NCBI GenBank assembly: GCA_050239825.1
Contig: JBFXGO010000039.1
Location: forward strand, 1 to 19,885
Direction of reading: 5' to 3'
DNA from: a bacterium
GTDB lineage: Bacteria; Hydrothermota; 32-111
DNA length: 19,885 bases
Each line of letters starts with the position of its first letter. Within the stretch, counting starts at the first letter, position 1. Of this stretch, positions 1,560-10,269 are shown one piece after another. A program made the translations under genes and the position numbers. Under the pieces are notes generated by a model. It did no database searches. It saw nothing but the letters and a program-made list of their open reading frames with translations, and was not told where the DNA came from.

Positions 1560-1576
1560 AATTTATATTTTATAGC

Positions 1577-1606
1577 AAAAAAAAGGGCGCAATCAGCGCC
1601 CTTTTT
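1577..1606. terminator. Bidirectional intrinsic terminator
   Basis: AAAAAAAAGGGCGC-AATCA-GCGCCCTTTTT: GC stem with T5 on + and T8 on -, located 17 bp after the aminotransferase stop. Confidence 0.88.
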
Positions 1607-1820
1607 ATTGTACATTCTCTCCTTTCTGTTTTATTCCTCTTATTTTAGGCTTTCTTGACATAAAAATCTATTCCCCCGTGGTTGACTTTTATTTTGCCAA
1701 TAACCAGTAGCCACTAAATAATCATCAATAATAAAAGATAATTCAGTTACGGGTTGCGAGTTTAAATACAATACGGAGTGCTGATTAATATTTATTCTTT
1801 TCAATAATCTTCTAAAACTT

Positions 1821-1906
1821 CTGGTACAACCCGTTTTTTCTATCATGTGCGTTAGCGCACATTTCACCCTCGCCAATGTGGGGACATTCCTTCGGTGTGT
1901 CCCCAC
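1821..1906. repeat. Module B copy 1 (two hairpins)
   Basis: ATGTGCG-TTAG-CGCACAT (1845-1862) and GTGGGGACA-TTCCTTCGGTG-TGTCCCCAC (1878-1906). Confidence 0.85.
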
Positions 1907-1949
1907 TGCAACAATCAATTAATTAACTTATTGAAAGTGAAAGCTCAAA

Positions 1950-2066
1950 GTCGGCGAGGACGCTCCGCGCAGACGCCCATCAAGTGGTTGTCCCCTTGCT
2001 CCGCTTTCCCATCTTGATTAAGCGGCGAAGCGAAGTGTGCGAGCCGACGCTACACCCGCGTGTAGC
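1950..2066. repeat. Module A copy 1 (117 bp long hairpin plus short hairpin)
   Basis: GTCGGC (1950-55) pairs with GCCGAC (2043-48); inner ATCAAG/CTTGAT stem; then GCTACAC-CCGC-GTGTAGC. Confidence 0.9.
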
Positions 2067-2076
2067 CCCCCAAATC

Positions 2077-2107
2077 AGCCGTGAGCCGTGAGCCATGTGC
2101 CATGAGC
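2077..2107. repeat. Heptamer tandem repeat H copy 1
   Basis: AGCCGTG AGCCGTG AGCCATG TGCCATG AGC. Confidence 0.85.
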
Positions 2108-2143
2108 ATAATACGGAGAGATGAATAAGATTTTGTCTTTACA

Positions 2144-2200
2144 GTTCCGAATGAGAAGCCTGTCCACAGCGCTCGTCTTTTCAATGCTTCTCATGAGGAC
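2144..2200. repeat. Module C copy 1 (hairpin)
   Basis: GTTCC-GA-ATGAGAAGC...GCTTCTCAT-GA-GGAC. Confidence 0.8.
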
Positions 2201-2238
2201 AATCAATTAAATAACTTATTGATACACGAAAGCTCAAA

Positions 2239-2333
2239 GTCGGCGAGGACGCTCCGCGCAGACGCCCGTCGAGGTCTGCCGAGACAAAGCCGCGAAGCGG
2301 AGTGTGTGAGCCGACGCTACACCCGCGTGTAGC
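2239..2333. repeat. Module A copy 2 (95 bp variant with different apical domain)
   Basis: Same basal stems and 3' hairpin; apex is GTC-GA-GG-TCTG-CC-GA-GAC. Confidence 0.88.
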
Positions 2334-2373
2334 CCCAGCTCAATCTTCAATAATCAATTAACGATAAACTGAT

Positions 2374-2418
2374 AGACCCTTCACGATAGTCATAACCACA
2401 GAGGCGTTCAGGGTGACA
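2374..2418. repeat. Module D copy 1 (CGTC/TGTC-tag REP-like palindrome)
   Basis: Minus strand reads TGTCACCCT-GA-ACG...CGT-GA-AGGGTCT. Confidence 0.75.
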
Positions 2419-2461
2419 CGGCTGAATAAGATTTTGTCTTTACAATAATCTTCACAAAGTT

Positions 2462-2547
2462 CTGGTGCAACCCGATGTCTCTATCATGTGCGTTCGCGCA
2501 CATTACACCCCAGCCAATGTGGGGACATTCCTACGGTGTGTCCCTAC
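2462..2547. repeat. Module B copy 2
   Basis: ATGTGCG-TTCG-CGCACAT (2486-2503) and GTGGGGACA...TGTCCCTAC (2519-2547). Confidence 0.85.
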
Positions 2548-2590
2548 TGCAACATTCAATTAAATAACTTATTGAAAGTGAAAGCTACAA

Positions 2591-2707
2591 GTCGGCGAGG
2601 ACGCTCCGCGCAGACGCCCATCAAGTGGTTGTCCCCTTGCTCCGCTTTCCCATCTTGATTAAGCGGCGAAGCGAAGTGTGCGAGCCGACGCTACACCCGC
2701 GTGTAGC
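2591..2707. repeat. Module A copy 3
   Basis: 117 bp; appears identical to copy 1. Confidence 0.9.
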
Positions 2708-2740
2708 CCATAAACAATCTTCAATTAACAACAAACTGAT

Positions 2741-2785
2741 AGACCCTTCATGATAGTCATAACCACAGAGGCGTTCAGGGTGACG
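2741..2785. repeat. Module D copy 2
   Basis: Minus strand reads CGTCACCCTGAACG...CATGAAGGGTCT. Confidence 0.75.
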
Positions 2786-2828
2786 CTGTTGAGTAAGATT
2801 TTGTCTTTACAATAATCTTCACAAAGTT

Positions 2829-2914
2829 CTGGTGCAACCCGATGTCTCTATCATGTGCGTTCGCGCACATTACATCCCAGCCAATGTGGGGACATTCCTA
2901 CGGTGTGTCCCTAC
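2829..2914. repeat. Module B copy 3
   Basis: Nearly identical to copy 2. Confidence 0.85.
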
Positions 2915-2957
2915 TGCAACATTCAATTAAATAACTTATTGAAAGTGAAAGCTACAA

Positions 2958-3074
2958 GTCGGCGAGGACGCTCCGCGCAGACGCCCATCAAGTGGTTGTC
3001 CCCTTGCTCCGCTTTCCCATCTTGATTAAGCGGCGAAGCGGAGTGTGCGAGCCGACGCTACACCCGCCAGCAGC
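2958..3074. repeat. Module A copy 4
   Basis: 117 bp; 3' hairpin is degenerate (GCTACACCCGCCAGCAGC). Confidence 0.9.
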
Positions 3075-3083
3075 CCATAAACC

Positions 3084-3114
3084 AGCCTTGAGCCGTGAGC
3101 CATGTGCCTTGAGC
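3084..3114. repeat. Heptamer tandem repeat H copy 2
   Basis: AGCCTTG AGCCGTG AGCCATG TGCCTTG AGC. Confidence 0.85.
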
Positions 3115-3151
3115 TTAATGCGGGGAGTTGAGTAAATAACTTGCCTTCACA

Positions 3152-3209
3152 GTTCCGAGGAAAAATTCCAGTGCATCTCCGCACTGCTATTCAATGTTTT
3201 TCCGAGGAC
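3152..3209. repeat. Module C copy 2 (hairpin, diverged from copy 1)
   Basis: GTTCC-GA-GGAAAAA...TTTTTCC-GA-GGAC with inner CAGTGC/GCACTG hairpin. Confidence 0.8.
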
Positions 3210-3245
3210 AAGCAAGTCAATTCTTATTGAAAGTGAAAGCTTCAA

Positions 3246-3362
3246 GTCGGCGAGGACGCTCCGCGCAGACGCCCATCAAGTGGTTGTCCCCTTGCTACGC
3301 TAACCCATCTTGATTAAGCGGCGAAGCGGAGTGTGCGAGCTGACGCTACGCCCGCGTGCAGC
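3246..3362. repeat. Module A copy 5
   Basis: 117 bp; GCCGAC changed to GCTGAC (G.U on +), plus a few loop changes. Confidence 0.9.
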
Positions 3363-3402
3363 CCATAAACAATCTTCAATAATCAATTAACGATAAACTG
3401 AT

Positions 3403-3425
3403 AGACCCTTCACGATAGTCATAAC
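3403..3425. repeat. Module D copy 3 (truncated half)
   Basis: AGACCCTTCACGATAGTCATAAC, after which similarity ends abruptly. Confidence 0.7.
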
Positions 3426-3456
3426 TAAAACTAGTGATAGCTTTTTGGGATAAAGA

Positions 3457-4320
3457 TTACATCTGCTCCCACATGCGCTTAAGAAGGCCTTTGTTGTCCT
3501 TCCATCCTTTCTCAACTTTAACAAATATTTCAAGGAAGACGCTCCTTCCGAGGAACTCTTCAATCATTTTTCTTGACCTCACACCCACCTCTTTTATTGC
3601 GGAACCCTTCTCTCCTATCAGTATTCCCTTTTGGCTGTCTCTCTCAACCAGAAGCTTGACCCTGATATAATCTTTGCGGTTCTCCTTCTCCGTGAATTCA
3701 TCGACTATTATACCGGTGGAGTAGGGTACCTCGTCTCCGTAGATCTCAAATACAGCCTGTCTGACAAACTCAGCCACAAAGAATCTCTCGGGTTTTTCAG
3801 TGATTATGTCCTCCGGATAGAAGAGATTATCATGCGGAAGGTAAAGCTTTATCTTTTGAATCAATCCGTCAAGATTTCTCTTTTCCAGAGCAGATATAAG
3901 AACAACATTCTCAAATCTCTCTTTTAACGAAATCTCTATTGAGGCGGCTTCTTCAGAGCTAATCCTGTCTGTTTTATTCAGAACTGCTATCGAGTGCTGA
4001 TTCTGAGATAGGTGAAATTCAAAAATCTCCTTATAATTTTTCATATCATAAAGAAAGAGAATTATATCCGAACTCTTTATTGATTCGTTTATGTCACGGA
4101 GCATCCATTCATCAAGCATGTTCCTCGTCTTTAAAAAGCCGGGGGTGTCATAAAATATAATCTGCGAATCGTCATCCATATATATGCCCTGAATAGAAGA
4201 GCGCGTAGTCTGCGCCTTCGGACTGACAGCAGAGAGCTTGAATTGAAGCAATGCATTGAGAAGAGTGGATTTTCCTGTATTTGGCCGGCCGATTATTGAT
4301 ACATAACCTGATTTCATCAT
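3457..4320 (-). CDS. era: GTPase Era
   Basis: G1 GRPNTGKS, G2 QTTR, G3 DTPG, G4 NKTD, G5 ISA; KH motif ILIGEKGSAIKEVG. Confidence 0.97.
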   Translation of the reverse strand: MMKSGYVSIIGRPNTGKSTLLNALLQFKLSAVSPKAQTTRSSIQGIYMDDDSQIIFYDTPGFLKTRNMLDEWMLRDINESIKSSDIILFLYDMKNYKEIFEFHLSQNQHSIAVLNKTDRISSEEAASIEISLKERFENVVLISALEKRNLDGLIQKIKLYLPHDNLFYPEDIITEKPERFFVAEFVRQAVFEIYGDEVPYSTGIIVDEFTEKENRKDYIRVKLLVERDSQKGILIGEKGSAIKEVGVRSRKMIEEFLGRSVFLEIFVKVEKGWKDNKGLLKRMWEQM

Positions 4321-5522: not shown

Positions 5523-6331
5523 AGACTCCTCCACTTTTCAAGAAAAATTTCAAAAACATCATTGTGAAGACCTGTCGGAGTATATATGTTATCTCCGTGA
5601 TAGTCGCTACCGCCTGTTATCAGAAGCTTTCTCGGCTTTGCAAAGTCAAGGAGAAAATCTATCTGATTCACCCTGTTTTTCGGAGTATAGACCTCTAATC
5701 CGTCGATTCCCATGGAGTAAATCTCTTCAAGGTCTCTGTACGCCTCATTTTCAAAGGGATGCGCCATAACCGCCAATCCCCTCAGAGAGTGTATCATCTC
5801 CACAGTCTCTCTGATGGTAAATTCCATCTTCGGAACATAACAGCACTTGTTGTCTCCGATGTATCTGTCAAATGCCTCTTTTAAATCCGCAATCTGTTCA
5901 TTTTTGAGCATCGCTCTTGCTATATGAGGTCTTCCCACAGATTCGGACTCTTTAGCTTCGATAAGCACATCCTCAAAATCAATTTTTATGTTATTCTCGT
6001 TAAGAAGATCCACCATTTTTTTTGCCCTCTCTATTCTGTCCTTCTTTCTAATGTCAAGAAGTTCTCCGGCCTTCTTATAGTCCTTCATGTAGCCGAGTAT
6101 ATGTATTTGACGGCCGCTGTTGAATGTTGAATACTCTACTCCCGGGATATTTGTCATACCATTCATTTCAGCCCACTCCACTGCCTCTGCAACCGATCTG
6201 ACCGAGTCATGGTCTGTCAATGAAAAGAACTTGATGCCGTTCAGTTTCAGAAGTTCGCAGAGCACAAGAGGCGCATACCTTCCGTCAGAAGCGATGGTGT
6301 GCAGATGAAGGTCGGCAATCACCGTGTTCAT
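5519..6331 (-). CDS. PHP-domain phosphoesterase (TrpH/YciV-like)
   Basis: DLHLHTIASDG, TDHD, GVE, HILGY, GRPHIA, AHP, TGGSDYHG. Confidence 0.92.
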   Translation of the reverse strand: MNTVIADLHLHTIASDGRYAPLVLCELLKLNGIKFFSLTDHDSVRSVAEAVEWAEMNGMTNIPGVEYSTFNSGRQIHILGYMKDYKKAGELLDIRKKDRIERAKKMVDLLNENNIKIDFEDVLIEAKESESVGRPHIARAMLKNEQIADLKEAFDRYIGDNKCCYVPKMEFTIRETVEMIHSLRGLAVMAHPFENEAYRDLEEIYSMGIDGLEVYTPKNRVNQIDFLLDFAKPRKLLITGGSDYHGDNIYTPTGLHNDVFEIFLEKWRSL

Positions 6332-7146
6332 TGCATACCCATATCTGATACTATCTGATTGACAATTGAATCATCTATGAATGTTTTTTTCTCTATAAAA
6401 GCTTCAAGAAGAGCATTATCGCAAAGAGTATTTATAAGCCGGGGTTTGCCTTTTGCATGCACATGTATAAGTTTTAGGGATGATTCGGTAAAGAGCGGTT
6501 CTGATCTCCCTGCAATTTTGAGTCTATGAAGCACATAGCCCTTCGTTGATTCTTCGTCAAGCGCAGGAAGAGTCAGTTTCATGCTTATCCTCTCATAGAG
6601 AGGAGGGTCAAGACGAAGATTCTCCTCAGTCTCAGGCATGCCGAATATGAGAAATGTTATCAGGTGGCCATTGTCGTTCTGTATATTGAGAAGACCCCTC
6701 AGCTCCTCCATTATCTCCCGGCTTTTCAGCATATTCGCTTCATCAATCATCACTACCGGTTTCTTGCCCTTTTCATTAAGAAGCACAAGCTGTCTGTAAA
6801 CATGGCCTATTATATCTATTTTATCGTCCGTCTCAACCTTTGCGCCGAGTTGAACCGCTATCTTCTTCAATAGCCATCCGGCTGTAATTTCAGAGTGGAT
6901 TATTACAAGGAGAGAAACTTCATACTCATTCGGTTTTGAGGAAAAGTAATCAAGAAGTCTTCTCGCTATAGTCGTCTTTCCCGTTCCTATGTCACCAATC
7001 AGCACTGCAAGCCCTCTACCCTGGTCAACAACATGCATCAGTTTTAAAAGGGCTTTTGAATGAAAGGGGGAGTTGTAATAGAATCTTTCATCAGGCGAAC
7101 TGGAGAAGGGGGCGATTTTGAAACCAAAGTAAGTATTGTAATCCAT
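6328..7146 (-). CDS. ExeA/GspA-like AAA+ ATPase (stand-alone ATPase domain)
   Basis: Y..YFGF...PFS.SPD.RFYY N-terminus, Walker A GDIGTGKTT, Walker B VMIDEAN, GMPE, GKPRLINTLCDNALL. Confidence 0.9.
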   Translation of the reverse strand: MDYNTYFGFKIAPFSSSPDERFYYNSPFHSKALLKLMHVVDQGRGLAVLIGDIGTGKTTIARRLLDYFSSKPNEYEVSLLVIIHSEITAGWLLKKIAVQLGAKVETDDKIDIIGHVYRQLVLLNEKGKKPVVMIDEANMLKSREIMEELRGLLNIQNDNGHLITFLIFGMPETEENLRLDPPLYERISMKLTLPALDEESTKGYVLHRLKIAGRSEPLFTESSLKLIHVHAKGKPRLINTLCDNALLEAFIEKKTFIDDSIVNQIVSDMGMQ

Positions 7147-9423: not shown

Positions 9424-10269
9424 TTATAACTCTCGCCTGAATGATGTCAACTGCCTTTTTAATCCAAGCGAATCTGAAACCTCGTCGACCATTTGGCCGT
9501 CTATCGGTATTCTCTGCAGAAAAGCGGCTTCAAGAAGAGCATTGTCGCAGATAGTGTTTATCAGCCTCGGTCTCCCGTTTGCATAATTGTGTATCATATC
9601 AACCGCCTCCTGAGTGAATATGGAGAGCGTGCCTCCTGCCACTGAGAGCCGGTATTTGATGTATCCGTATGTTTCATCTTTTGAGAGAGATTTGAGGTAT
9701 GCCCTTGCGGCTACTCTCTGAAGAAGAGACTCATTCTGCATAATGTTCTTCTCCAACTCGGGAACTCCTATGAGTATAAATGTTATTATTCTTCTGTCGG
9801 AAAGTTCAAGATTCAAAAAGCCCCTTATCTGCTCTATTACTTTTGCATCTGATATTTTATTCGCCTCATCTATCATTATGACCACCTTCTTGCCCTCCTT
9901 GTCAAGCCGTATAAGCTGGCGCGTTATTATGTTCATTGGGTCAGTCATAAGATTTGTAGTGTCCTTTATTCCCACAAGCTGGGCAAGCCTTGTGTAGAGC
10001 CATTCGTCGGTGAAGTTCTCATGGGTAAGAACTATAAGCCCTGTCTGAAACTTGGGATTCTTCGATAGGTATGACAAGAGCTTCCTAGCGACTGTTGTCT
10101 TTCCCGTTCCTACCTCTCCGACGAGCATTGCAAAGCCGCGCATCTTGTCTGCCGCATGCATAAGCCTTAACAGAGCCATCTTGTGCTGTTGGCTTTCAAA
10201 AAAGAACCTGGTATCAGGTATGTTGGCAAAAGGCTCGAAGGACATTTTGAAGAATTCTTCGTAATTCAT
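9424..10269 (-). CDS. ExeA/GspA-like AAA+ ATPase (second paralog)
   Basis: PFANIPDTRFFF, Walker A GEVGTGKTT, Walker B IMIDEAN, GVPEL, GRPRLINTICDNALL. Confidence 0.9.
   Translation of the reverse strand: MNYEEFFKMSFEPFANIPDTRFFFESQQHKMALLRLMHAADKMRGFAMLVGEVGTGKTTVARKLLSYLSKNPKFQTGLIVLTHENFTDEWLYTRLAQLVGIKDTTNLMTDPMNIITRQLIRLDKEGKKVVIMIDEANKISDAKVIEQIRGFLNLELSDRRIITFILIGVPELEKNIMQNESLLQRVAARAYLKSLSKDETYGYIKYRLSVAGGTLSIFTQEAVDMIHNYANGRPRLINTICDNALLEAAFLQRIPIDGQMVDEVSDSLGLKRQLTSFRREL

Follow-up and report, generated by a model that had tools for sequence, protein, structure and literature searches.

Neisserial intergenic mosaic elements (NIME) are built from units delimited by dRS3 inverted repeats, dRS3 being a phage or recombinase site, and the BOX elements of Streptococcus pneumoniae have the composition boxA-boxB(n)-boxC. 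Repetitive extragenic palindromes (REPs) are described as palindromes of 20-40 bp (PMC3733652) and bacterial interspersed mosaic elements (BIMEs) as assemblies in which REPs alternate in orientation (PMC2817692). Here we describe a family of repeats that in our best reading is most like these systems and is not established as an RNA gene. It lies in a stretch of 19,885 nucleotides from a bacterium of the WOR-3 phylum (contig JBFXGO010000039.1, assembly GCA_050239825.1), the whole of which we call the window. The gene-free gap of the window at 1560-3456, between an aminotransferase-like open reading frame (ORF; 132-1559, + strand) and era (3457-4320, - strand), both named from their ORF translations, carries five copies of a hairpin-forming repeat, Module A. 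We assign a probability of about 0.6 to the reading that these copies belong to a genus-specific, non-coding and selfish family of mosaic hairpin repeats, in which Module A is the best-conserved module and has the form of a rod.

The Module A hairpin is maintained by selection

An earlier note on the same DNA had described Module A as a conserved basal helix with tandem G.A pairs and an exchangeable apical domain. The window sequence agrees with this description. A basal GTCGGC/GCCGAC helix with GA/GA pairs is followed by a second helix, ACGCTCCGC/GCGGAGTGT, and the differences among copies are as the note had listed them. Copy 2, with 77 instead of 99 nt, is 22 nt shorter, GTC-GA-GG-TCTG-CC-GA-GAC substituting for ATCAAG...CTTGAT; copy 5 has GCTGAC, copy 2 has T-GA-GCCGAC, and copies 1 and 3 have GCGAAGT. 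Across the genome Module A measures 77, 99 or 114 nt from foot to foot. The 102 near-full copies that were extracted, 99 of them unique, fall into three apex types, as expected of an exchangeable apex: long in 90, long with an inserted GGGGACA hairpin in 7, and short with a CGAG block in 5.

An alignment of 73 distinct copies, 56 from this genome (30 fetched loci) and 17 from elsewhere, shows a hairpin that is maintained by selection. The copies were chosen by two anchors, columns 1-15 and 103-116, with 2-3 mismatches allowed, so that the pairs in these columns are biased towards conservation. Over the 27 pairs of the structure 94% of the cells are standard-paired, and nine pairs (34 cells) have changed on both sides, eight of these nine lying outside the anchors. 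None of 500 shuffles reached any of the five measures used, and sliding the partner by 1-3 columns gave 0-3 such pairs. Inner helix 2, for example, occurs as CTCCGC/GCGGAG, CTTCGC/GCGAAG, CTTTGC/GCAAAG and CTGCTT/AAGCAG. Compensatory changes also keep the basal helix with its tandem G.A pairs.

The non-canonical positions are conserved as well. The tandem G7.A110 and A8.G109 is invariant (73/73 copies), as is G13.T104; G10.G107 is found in 72/73 copies, the GNA/GNA internal loop has G.A in 70/73 and A.G in 68/73, and A24.G93 is present in 60/73. These positions are purine-purine or wobble on the + strand and pyrimidine-pyrimidine or A.C on the - strand, and over all pairs there are 141 G.T cells against 21 A.C cells. 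The + strand is the more stable in 65/73 copies with RNA parameters and in 55/73 with DNA parameters. Folding both strands as RNA, as the earlier note had proposed, gave z = -3.9, -4.1 and -2.45 against shuffles for copies 1, 2 and 5 on the + strand, and -2.2, -2.2 and +0.16 on the - strand. From the one-sided purine mismatches and the better folding, the + strand is therefore most likely the one that folds, and the data are compatible with RNA or single-stranded DNA. The basal 5'-CGAG/3'-GAGC of Module A, the short apex and one of the neighbouring modules (head H3, listed below) match the CGAG block motif exactly. This block of sheared G:A pairs also occurs in RNA. In a study of a human promoter repeat, sheared G:A pairs in CGAG/CGAG blocks gave DNA oligonucleotides, as single strands, hairpins of high thermal stability (PMC10085684), which indicates that single-stranded DNA can adopt the motif; the study is silent on its role here.

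Mosaic arrays in the window, the genome and the genus

Compared by blastn with the 2.1 Mb assembly, one copy of Module A gave 123 high-scoring segment pairs on 31 contigs, 104 of them of at least 100 nt. The copies form 42 clusters on 31 contigs, of which 41 are one-directional, with a unit spacing of about 280-435 nt. The DNA between the Module A copies is likewise repeated, each 20-nt step over 1780-3400 having 60-124 matches in the genome, and the DNA that matches the repeat region of the window amounts to at least 39,773 nt, or 1.9% of the genome. The array in the window extends from 1717 to 3429, and the interval considered in the earlier note spans part of it. The features of the region are given below, with Module A measured foot to foot; G001 and G002 are two sister species of this genome (G000), and C numbers are contigs.

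1580..1606, no strand: bidirectional terminator-like hairpin marking where the inserted DNA starts on the left; G001 and G002 have it too, directly before the era stop codon
1607..3456, +: DNA that is extra relative to the two sister species at the aminotransferase-era site; flanks align at 76-80% identity, and in L057/L058 the terminator abuts the era stop
1607..1710, no strand: fragment of an unrelated repeat, within the insert and outside the Module A family, ending in ...TTTTGCCAATAACC; 93% identity over 111 nt to C3:10646-10756, with the end motif at 5 further loci
1717..3429, +: mosaic repeat array of five units in a single orientation, from the genomic matches per step and the array boundaries
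1740..1781, +: array leader, 7-nt repeats GTTACGG/GTTGCGA and then TTTAAATACAATACGG; the same leader starts about 10 arrays
1782..1803, +: junction repeat TGAKTAAKATTTWKTCTTTWCA, copy 1 (repeat family D7; genomic matches)
1878..1906, +: GGGGACA hairpin module, GTGGGGACA-loop-TGTCCCCAC (inverted repeats I2 and I3; 55 genomic loci)
1950..2048, +: Module A copy 1, long apex (sequence, fold, alignment)
2122..2143, +: junction repeat, copy 2 (family D7, genomic matches)
2146..2199, +: head module H2, TCC-GA-ATGAGAAGC / GCTTCTCAT-GA-GGA, whose helix contains a tandem G.A of its own; both arms match exactly in 17 copies
2239..2315, +: Module A copy 2, short apex with CGAG/CGAG block (sequence, fold, alignment)
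2423..2444, +: junction repeat, copy 3 (family D7, genomic matches)
2519..2547, +: GGGGACA hairpin module (I2/I3; 55 genomic loci)
2591..2689, +: Module A copy 3, identical to copy 1 (sequence, copy extraction)
2790..2811, +: junction repeat, copy 4 (family D7, genomic matches)
2886..2914, +: GGGGACA hairpin module (I2/I3; 55 genomic loci)
2958..3056, +: Module A copy 4 (sequence, alignment)
3154..3208, +: head module H3, TCC-GA-GGAAAAA / TTTTTCC-GA-GGA; both arms match exactly in 20 copies
3246..3344, +: Module A copy 5, GCTGAC variant (sequence, fold, alignment)

A unit of 280-435 nt is made of a junction repeat, one head hairpin, an optional GGGGACA hairpin, Module A and one tail, and such units follow one another head to tail in one-directional arrays within gene-free gaps. 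The 22-nt junction repeat has 112 matches in the genome at up to 5 mismatches, about 105 of them inside arrays, and separates at least five alternative upstream tails from at least three downstream heads. Heads H2 and H3 are closed hairpins of different helix sequence in which the tandem G.A of TCC-GA.../...GA-GGA is kept, and the inner hairpin of H3 is terminator-like on the - strand (3186-3169, then GAATTTTTCC). A coding reading of a further head, H1, in which a frame of 25-30 codons had been seen by eye, was rejected because its inner hairpin compensates ATGTGCG/CGCACAT to ATGGACG/CGTCCAT, which alters the peptide. A test of head-tail association within units versus across junctions came out both ways over 89 junction repeats, many of whose heads were mis-typed, and was not used.

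The GGGGACA hairpin, 25-29 nt long, is present at 55 loci, 49 of them in arrays, and the different sequences on its left include the Module A tip, the 3' side of every head type and sites beside tRNA-like sequence. This fits the idea of nested, swappable modules. The earlier note had proposed a REP-like scaffold with nested cargo, or else an unknown structured RNA with a variable apex, and of the former proposal the nested exchangeable modules stand, while the scaffold does not: the 'empty' REP-like hairpin GTCGGCGAGGACGCCGAC(GCTAC) has no match in the genome, either as an 18-mer with up to 2 mismatches or as a 23-mer with up to 3. Membership in the REP family is not supported either, with a hairpin of 77-114 nt instead of 20-40 nt and Y1-transposase genes that are flanked by other repeats. 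As side observations, GGGGACA hairpins directly follow sequences of the GTTCGAATCC type, which resemble a tRNA T arm, in short repeated blocks at C7:59640 and 59803 and at C27:42844, 45286 and 45379, and may have been inserted next to tRNA genes or to fragments of them. A second hairpin type, GGGGACATGTACTTGTACTGTCCCC, is found mostly outside arrays in another repeat (C18:8040, C25:182, C25:2652, C30:8784, C38:6951, C50:140635 and C66:7939), which has a GAGCCGTGTGCCTTGAGC motif in common with one array tail. Array modules contain the decamer GCGAATGAGC at 8 sites, for example in the arrays on C35 and C54.

The array ends are ragged, some with truncated Module A halves. By our own tally from the boundary listing, about 10 arrays open with a leader of 7-nt repeats (GTTACGR) and about 8 with a truncated Module A 3' half that starts near TGTGYGAGCCGAC; about 10 stop exactly after the junction repeat (...TTTACA) and about 8 with another repeat, ...AACCACCGTCCC. 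A breakpoint at TGTG|YGAGCCGAC recurs. The leaders often consist of 3-5 tandem 7-nt repeats (GTTACGG/GTTGCGA/GTTTCGA) followed by TTTAAATACAATACGGGGAG, as at C36:39924, C47:504 and C9:57465. Such repeats, which have an iteron-like look, also stand alone (C9:66673, C17:39720), and about 5 other arrays open with AAGGTAA-type repeats. In the window, the left junction had been considered as a target resembling the junction repeat, a candidate that was dropped when 1607-1710 turned out to be a fragment of another repeat. The end motif of the latter, ...GCGGTTGACTTTTATTTTGCCAATAACC, recurs with a sharp boundary at C3:10646-10756, C3:9788, C55:750, C5:16115, C24:33590 and C1:17197, and this end resembles the terminus of another mobile element. 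Further along the window, two paralogous ATPase-like genes of ~270-280 aa (6328-7146 and 9424-10269, 3126 nt apart; repeat families D9-D11) bracket a repeat-rich protein of 747 aa.

Five array loci were compared with the two sister species. At the site of the window, both have the aminotransferase gene and era at 76-80% identity and a common terminator hairpin that runs straight into the era stop codon; as the terminator abuts the stop there, 1607-3456 of the window is extra DNA. The array at C50:7449 has no counterpart in G002, where the spacer measures 74 nt and contains a terminator hairpin, and at C50:74817 both sisters have 1.9-2.6 kb of coding DNA and no repeat-like interval. In the latter region (C50:73421-76551, L009, compared with G001:C69 and G002:C105) the sisters continue an ORF of 515-603 aa at the position of the array, so that part of a gene may have been replaced or cut off by the array in this genome. 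At the C35 site, where this genome has an array, G001 has a partial module and a Y1-transposase ORF of 297 aa, the latter with inverted repeats. The flanks of the C31 and C14 arrays are, in the sister genomes, on different contigs (contig breaks) or enclose unexamined DNA. Arrays are thus gained or lost between sister species, which is the behaviour of selfish or mobile DNA and not that of a conserved gene.

The family is found only in the genus of the window. It is present in 3 of 61 genomes by blastn, the own genome included, and in 3 of 141 WOR-3 genomes, all of one genus, by a covariance model built from the 73 copies. Matches to an exact pattern came from two records of a species collection (a WOR-3 metagenome-assembled genome and an unclassified one) and from 7 metagenome loci.

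Origin of the arrays and rival explanations

If the repeats are selfish, local duplication and recombination between units would enlarge the arrays, and new ones would be seeded by a strand-specific process acting on the folded + strand as single-stranded DNA. The seeding agent would most plausibly be the Y1 (HUH) tyrosine transposases of this genome, of the type flanked by terminal inverted repeats (TIRs), whose end repeats are built into the arrays; we regard the transposase step as plausible but less likely than not. Any benefit to the host, such as structure at the 3' end of a neighbouring mRNA, would come second. Four PF01797 (Y1_Tnp) ORFs of 217-301 aa from the first Met are present in the genome, two of them with a C-terminal helix-turn-helix.

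C14:64115-64453, C5:4741-5079, C56:11573-11872, C18:43162-43449: Y1_Tnp ORFs, with own inverted repeats each (GGGACGGTGGTT..., GGGACGGAGTATGGT..., GCGGCGGGGGGTGAAAA...)

The end repeats form small dispersed families of 32, 12 and 12 copies. Thirteen of the 32 copies of the end repeat ACCACCGTCCC lie in arrays or within 150 nt of them (arrays make up 2.6% of the genome; p 5e-13), and 12 of these 13 are co-oriented with the array. No orientation bias was found for the Y1 genes themselves (2 vs 2), and end repeats outside arrays are distributed 10:9, 3:8 and 4:5. Tandem units of ~80-90 nt at C14:11103-11240 and C16:556-622 join the Module A 3' half to the ACCACCGTCCC end repeat, so that the two repeat systems are physically fused.

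Two rival explanations are based on RNA. In flanks of 8 kb, GC skew is negative on the + strand of the module in 38/47 blocks (p 2.5e-5), and the flanking ORFs are mostly on the strand opposite to it in 36/47 (p 3.5e-4); GC skew and ORF strand correlate (r 0.8), and effects of replication and of transcription are therefore inseparable. With this bias the - strand would be read through from upstream genes. REP and BIME elements have been reported as terminators or mRNA-end stabilisers, and the arrays could likewise act in cis as - strand RNA, in a 3' untranslated region, as a terminator or as a stabiliser of mRNA ends, and be retained on that account, which would be compatible with a selfish origin. 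Such a role agrees with the co-directional flanking genes, with 13 arrays antisense between same-direction genes against 3 sense on a crude ORF map, and with a converging gene's stop codon no more than 30 nt from the array in 9 of the 27 arrays that have such a gene. The array at C50:7449 also replaces the sister's terminator hairpin, the inner hairpin of H3 is terminator-like on the - strand, and Module A is followed on that strand by a T-rich stretch, TTGTAGCTTTCACTTTC, although its T tract is broken. On the - strand, however, the conserved mismatches are pyrimidine-pyrimidine and the invariant G.T becomes A.C, the folding is worse in 65/73 copies, a plain terminator suffices in the sister species, and a 1.7-kb array of five units goes far beyond the needs of a terminator. 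We consider this explanation of the family unlikely, and a secondary role at mRNA 3' ends possible to judge from the sequence. The same read-through of the - strand argues against independent, highly expressed RNA genes on the + strand. Were each unit a gene for a structured non-coding RNA of ~300 nt, with Module A as a protein-binding rod bearing G.A motifs and a variable apex, the compensatory changes, the purine-purine mismatches and G.U-compatible pairs of the + strand, its better folding and the conservation of Module A above the flanking genes between species would be accounted for. The junction repeat and the H1 head can together read TTGAGT-16-AATAAT, but this promoter-like match is absent before the H2 and H3 heads; 4 such sites were counted, where shuffles gave 2.7 +/- 1.9, and they are inconsistent between unit types, and a terminator scan gave none after the units on the + strand. 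Rfam 15 had no match in the whole window at the gathering score, and at E up to 10 all 23 matches were at 1500-1722 or 3516-3576 and touched no repeat module; a tRNA/tmRNA scan of the window found none. Arrays that are oriented against their neighbouring genes, are missing at orthologous sites, contain many truncated or rearranged copies and reach ~100 copies in one genus only make a set of RNA genes distinctly improbable.

Two further readings concern DNA. The consensus of the integron attC core is RYYYAAC...GTTRRRY, and Module A as an attC-type recombination hairpin in integron-like cassette arrays would explain the folded imperfect palindrome with its basal helix, unpaired spacer, second helix and variable tip, as well as the same-direction arrays and the few accessory genes between them. 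No GTTRRRY/RYYYAAC core is visible by eye in the aligned Module A copies, however, the units are gene-less and of few recurring types, and the 42 clusters are separate and do not form one platform. The only matches are tyrosine recombinases of 296-301 aa, 'Xer-like' by their size, and none stands beside the arrays examined. With no core sites seen, non-coding units and no integrase beside the arrays examined, we rejected this reading, which is very improbable. The accessory-looking genes between arrays, judged by eye from their translations, include an AbiE-like toxin-antitoxin pair, an AAA ATPase and a small nucleotidyltransferase-like protein (C28:24616-25984, C39:6735-8003, C43:6857-7291). 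Rather improbable, in our view, is an undescribed strand-specific DNA-copying system with folded CGAG-block rods, nested tips and serial addition of units, or else a new protein-binding + strand RNA in ~100 copies. The copying system would recognise the long rods, with their CGAG blocks of sheared G.A pairs, in the folded state of single-stranded DNA; larger hairpins would receive smaller ones at their tips, and units would be added serially behind the leader of 7-nt repeats. If true, arrays would grow here in a way that differs from the mechanisms of REPs with their REP-associated tyrosine transposases (RAYTs), of miniature inverted-repeat transposable elements (MITEs), of integrons and of CRISPR.

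Several observations weigh against a selfish family spread by Y1 transposases. Module A is ~88% identical between species and the flanking genes 66-87%, which could mean a selected cellular function or a recent interspecies transfer. Without positions 9-108 and 13-104, the asymmetry between G.T and A.C cells disappears (25 vs 21). The ORF map behind the orientation counts is crude and blocks sharing a contig are not independent, and the bias is opposite to that of elements of the insertion sequence (IS) type IS200/IS605, if genes here run with replication. Module A flanks none of the four Y1-transposase genes. Such genes are present in 22/31 relatives, most of them without the repeat, so that there is no co-distribution. 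The array ends examined show no clean terminal repeats or target duplications.

A mosaic hairpin family of this kind would make WOR-3, a deep-branching uncultured phylum, one of the few bacterial groups in which large families of mosaic intergenic repeats are on record, and it takes up about 2% of a genome that is small, at 2.1 Mb. Its anatomy is unusual, with long composite hairpins, CGAG blocks on one strand, modules nested in tips and one-directional arrays of strong orientation bias. The family is therefore well suited to the study of how such repeats are copied and whether enzymes acting on single-stranded DNA take part. The repeats also break assemblies, many copies being at contig ends in one sister genome, and can be mistaken for RNA genes or cassette arrays. 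The present analysis contributes the pair-by-pair structure and covariation of Module A, its one-strand purine mismatches and CGAG blocks, the tip types, the nesting, the orientation bias, the enrichment of Y1 end repeats and the absence of the empty scaffold.

Comparison with known repeat systems

Among the matches listed in a full-text literature search, no publication on repeats of WOR-3/Stahlbacteria was found. Like REPs and BIMEs, the present repeats are high-copy, G+C-rich extragenic hairpins with conserved mismatches that form mosaics with short motifs, mostly downstream of genes, in a genome that has Y1 (HUH) transposase genes. REPs carry an unpaired GTAG or CGTC tag on one side of the stem; here GTAGC precedes the stem on the - strand in 63/102 copies, ATAGC in 21 and TTAGC in 8, and CGTC is inside the stem and not unpaired. 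At 77-114 nt, however, Module A is too long for a REP, and its arrays are one-directional, although a BIME-like mosaic of defined motifs is present. In REPIN/RAYT systems a single-copy RAYT gene has the same repeats on its flanks; here the four PF01797 ORFs are flanked by other inverted repeats, and Module A is co-oriented in 41/42 clusters instead of forming inverted doublets.

The Y1 ORFs, each within its own inverted repeats that form small dispersed families, are arranged as in the TIRYT or 'TIRtron' systems, as described by Di Nocera et al. 2013 (PMC3733652), and one family of end repeats is embedded co-oriented in the arrays. The same paper reports the motif GGGGWSAS in some TIRs (PMC3733652), which the - strand arm of the GGGGACA hairpin, GGGGACAC, fits by eye. 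Module A does not belong to these TIRs, the likeness of the Y1 ORFs is one of gene arrangement, and long composite hairpins or arrays of units are not described in the available part of PMC3733652.

MITEs have terminal inverted repeats, target-site duplications and related full-length IS, whereas the array ends here are heterogeneous and have no shared terminal inverted repeats; no unit contains a transposase gene, and the ORFs between arrays are unrelated to one another. A derivative of IS200/IS605 elements, similar to palindrome-associated transposable elements (PATEs), would have subterminal hairpins at both ends, insert beside a fixed target of 4-5 nt and be moved by a cognate TnpA. About 10 arrays end right after ...TTTACA and one empty site reads TTTTTTCTTACA; elsewhere the ends vary, and the analysis identified no cognate transposase. 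The NIME of Neisseria offer a closer likeness in plan, with a short constant repeat between interchangeable longer units and patchwork intergenic spacers, but there is no sequence relation and the delimiter here is a 22-nt direct repeat. BOX elements, too, are non-coding and assembled from modules, form hairpins, vary in how many internal modules they contain and number about 100 copies, whereas their modules and module order are different, they lack long arrays of whole units and their phylum is unrelated. Although it fails the defining features of each of them, the family acts like REP/BIME, NIME and BOX repeats.

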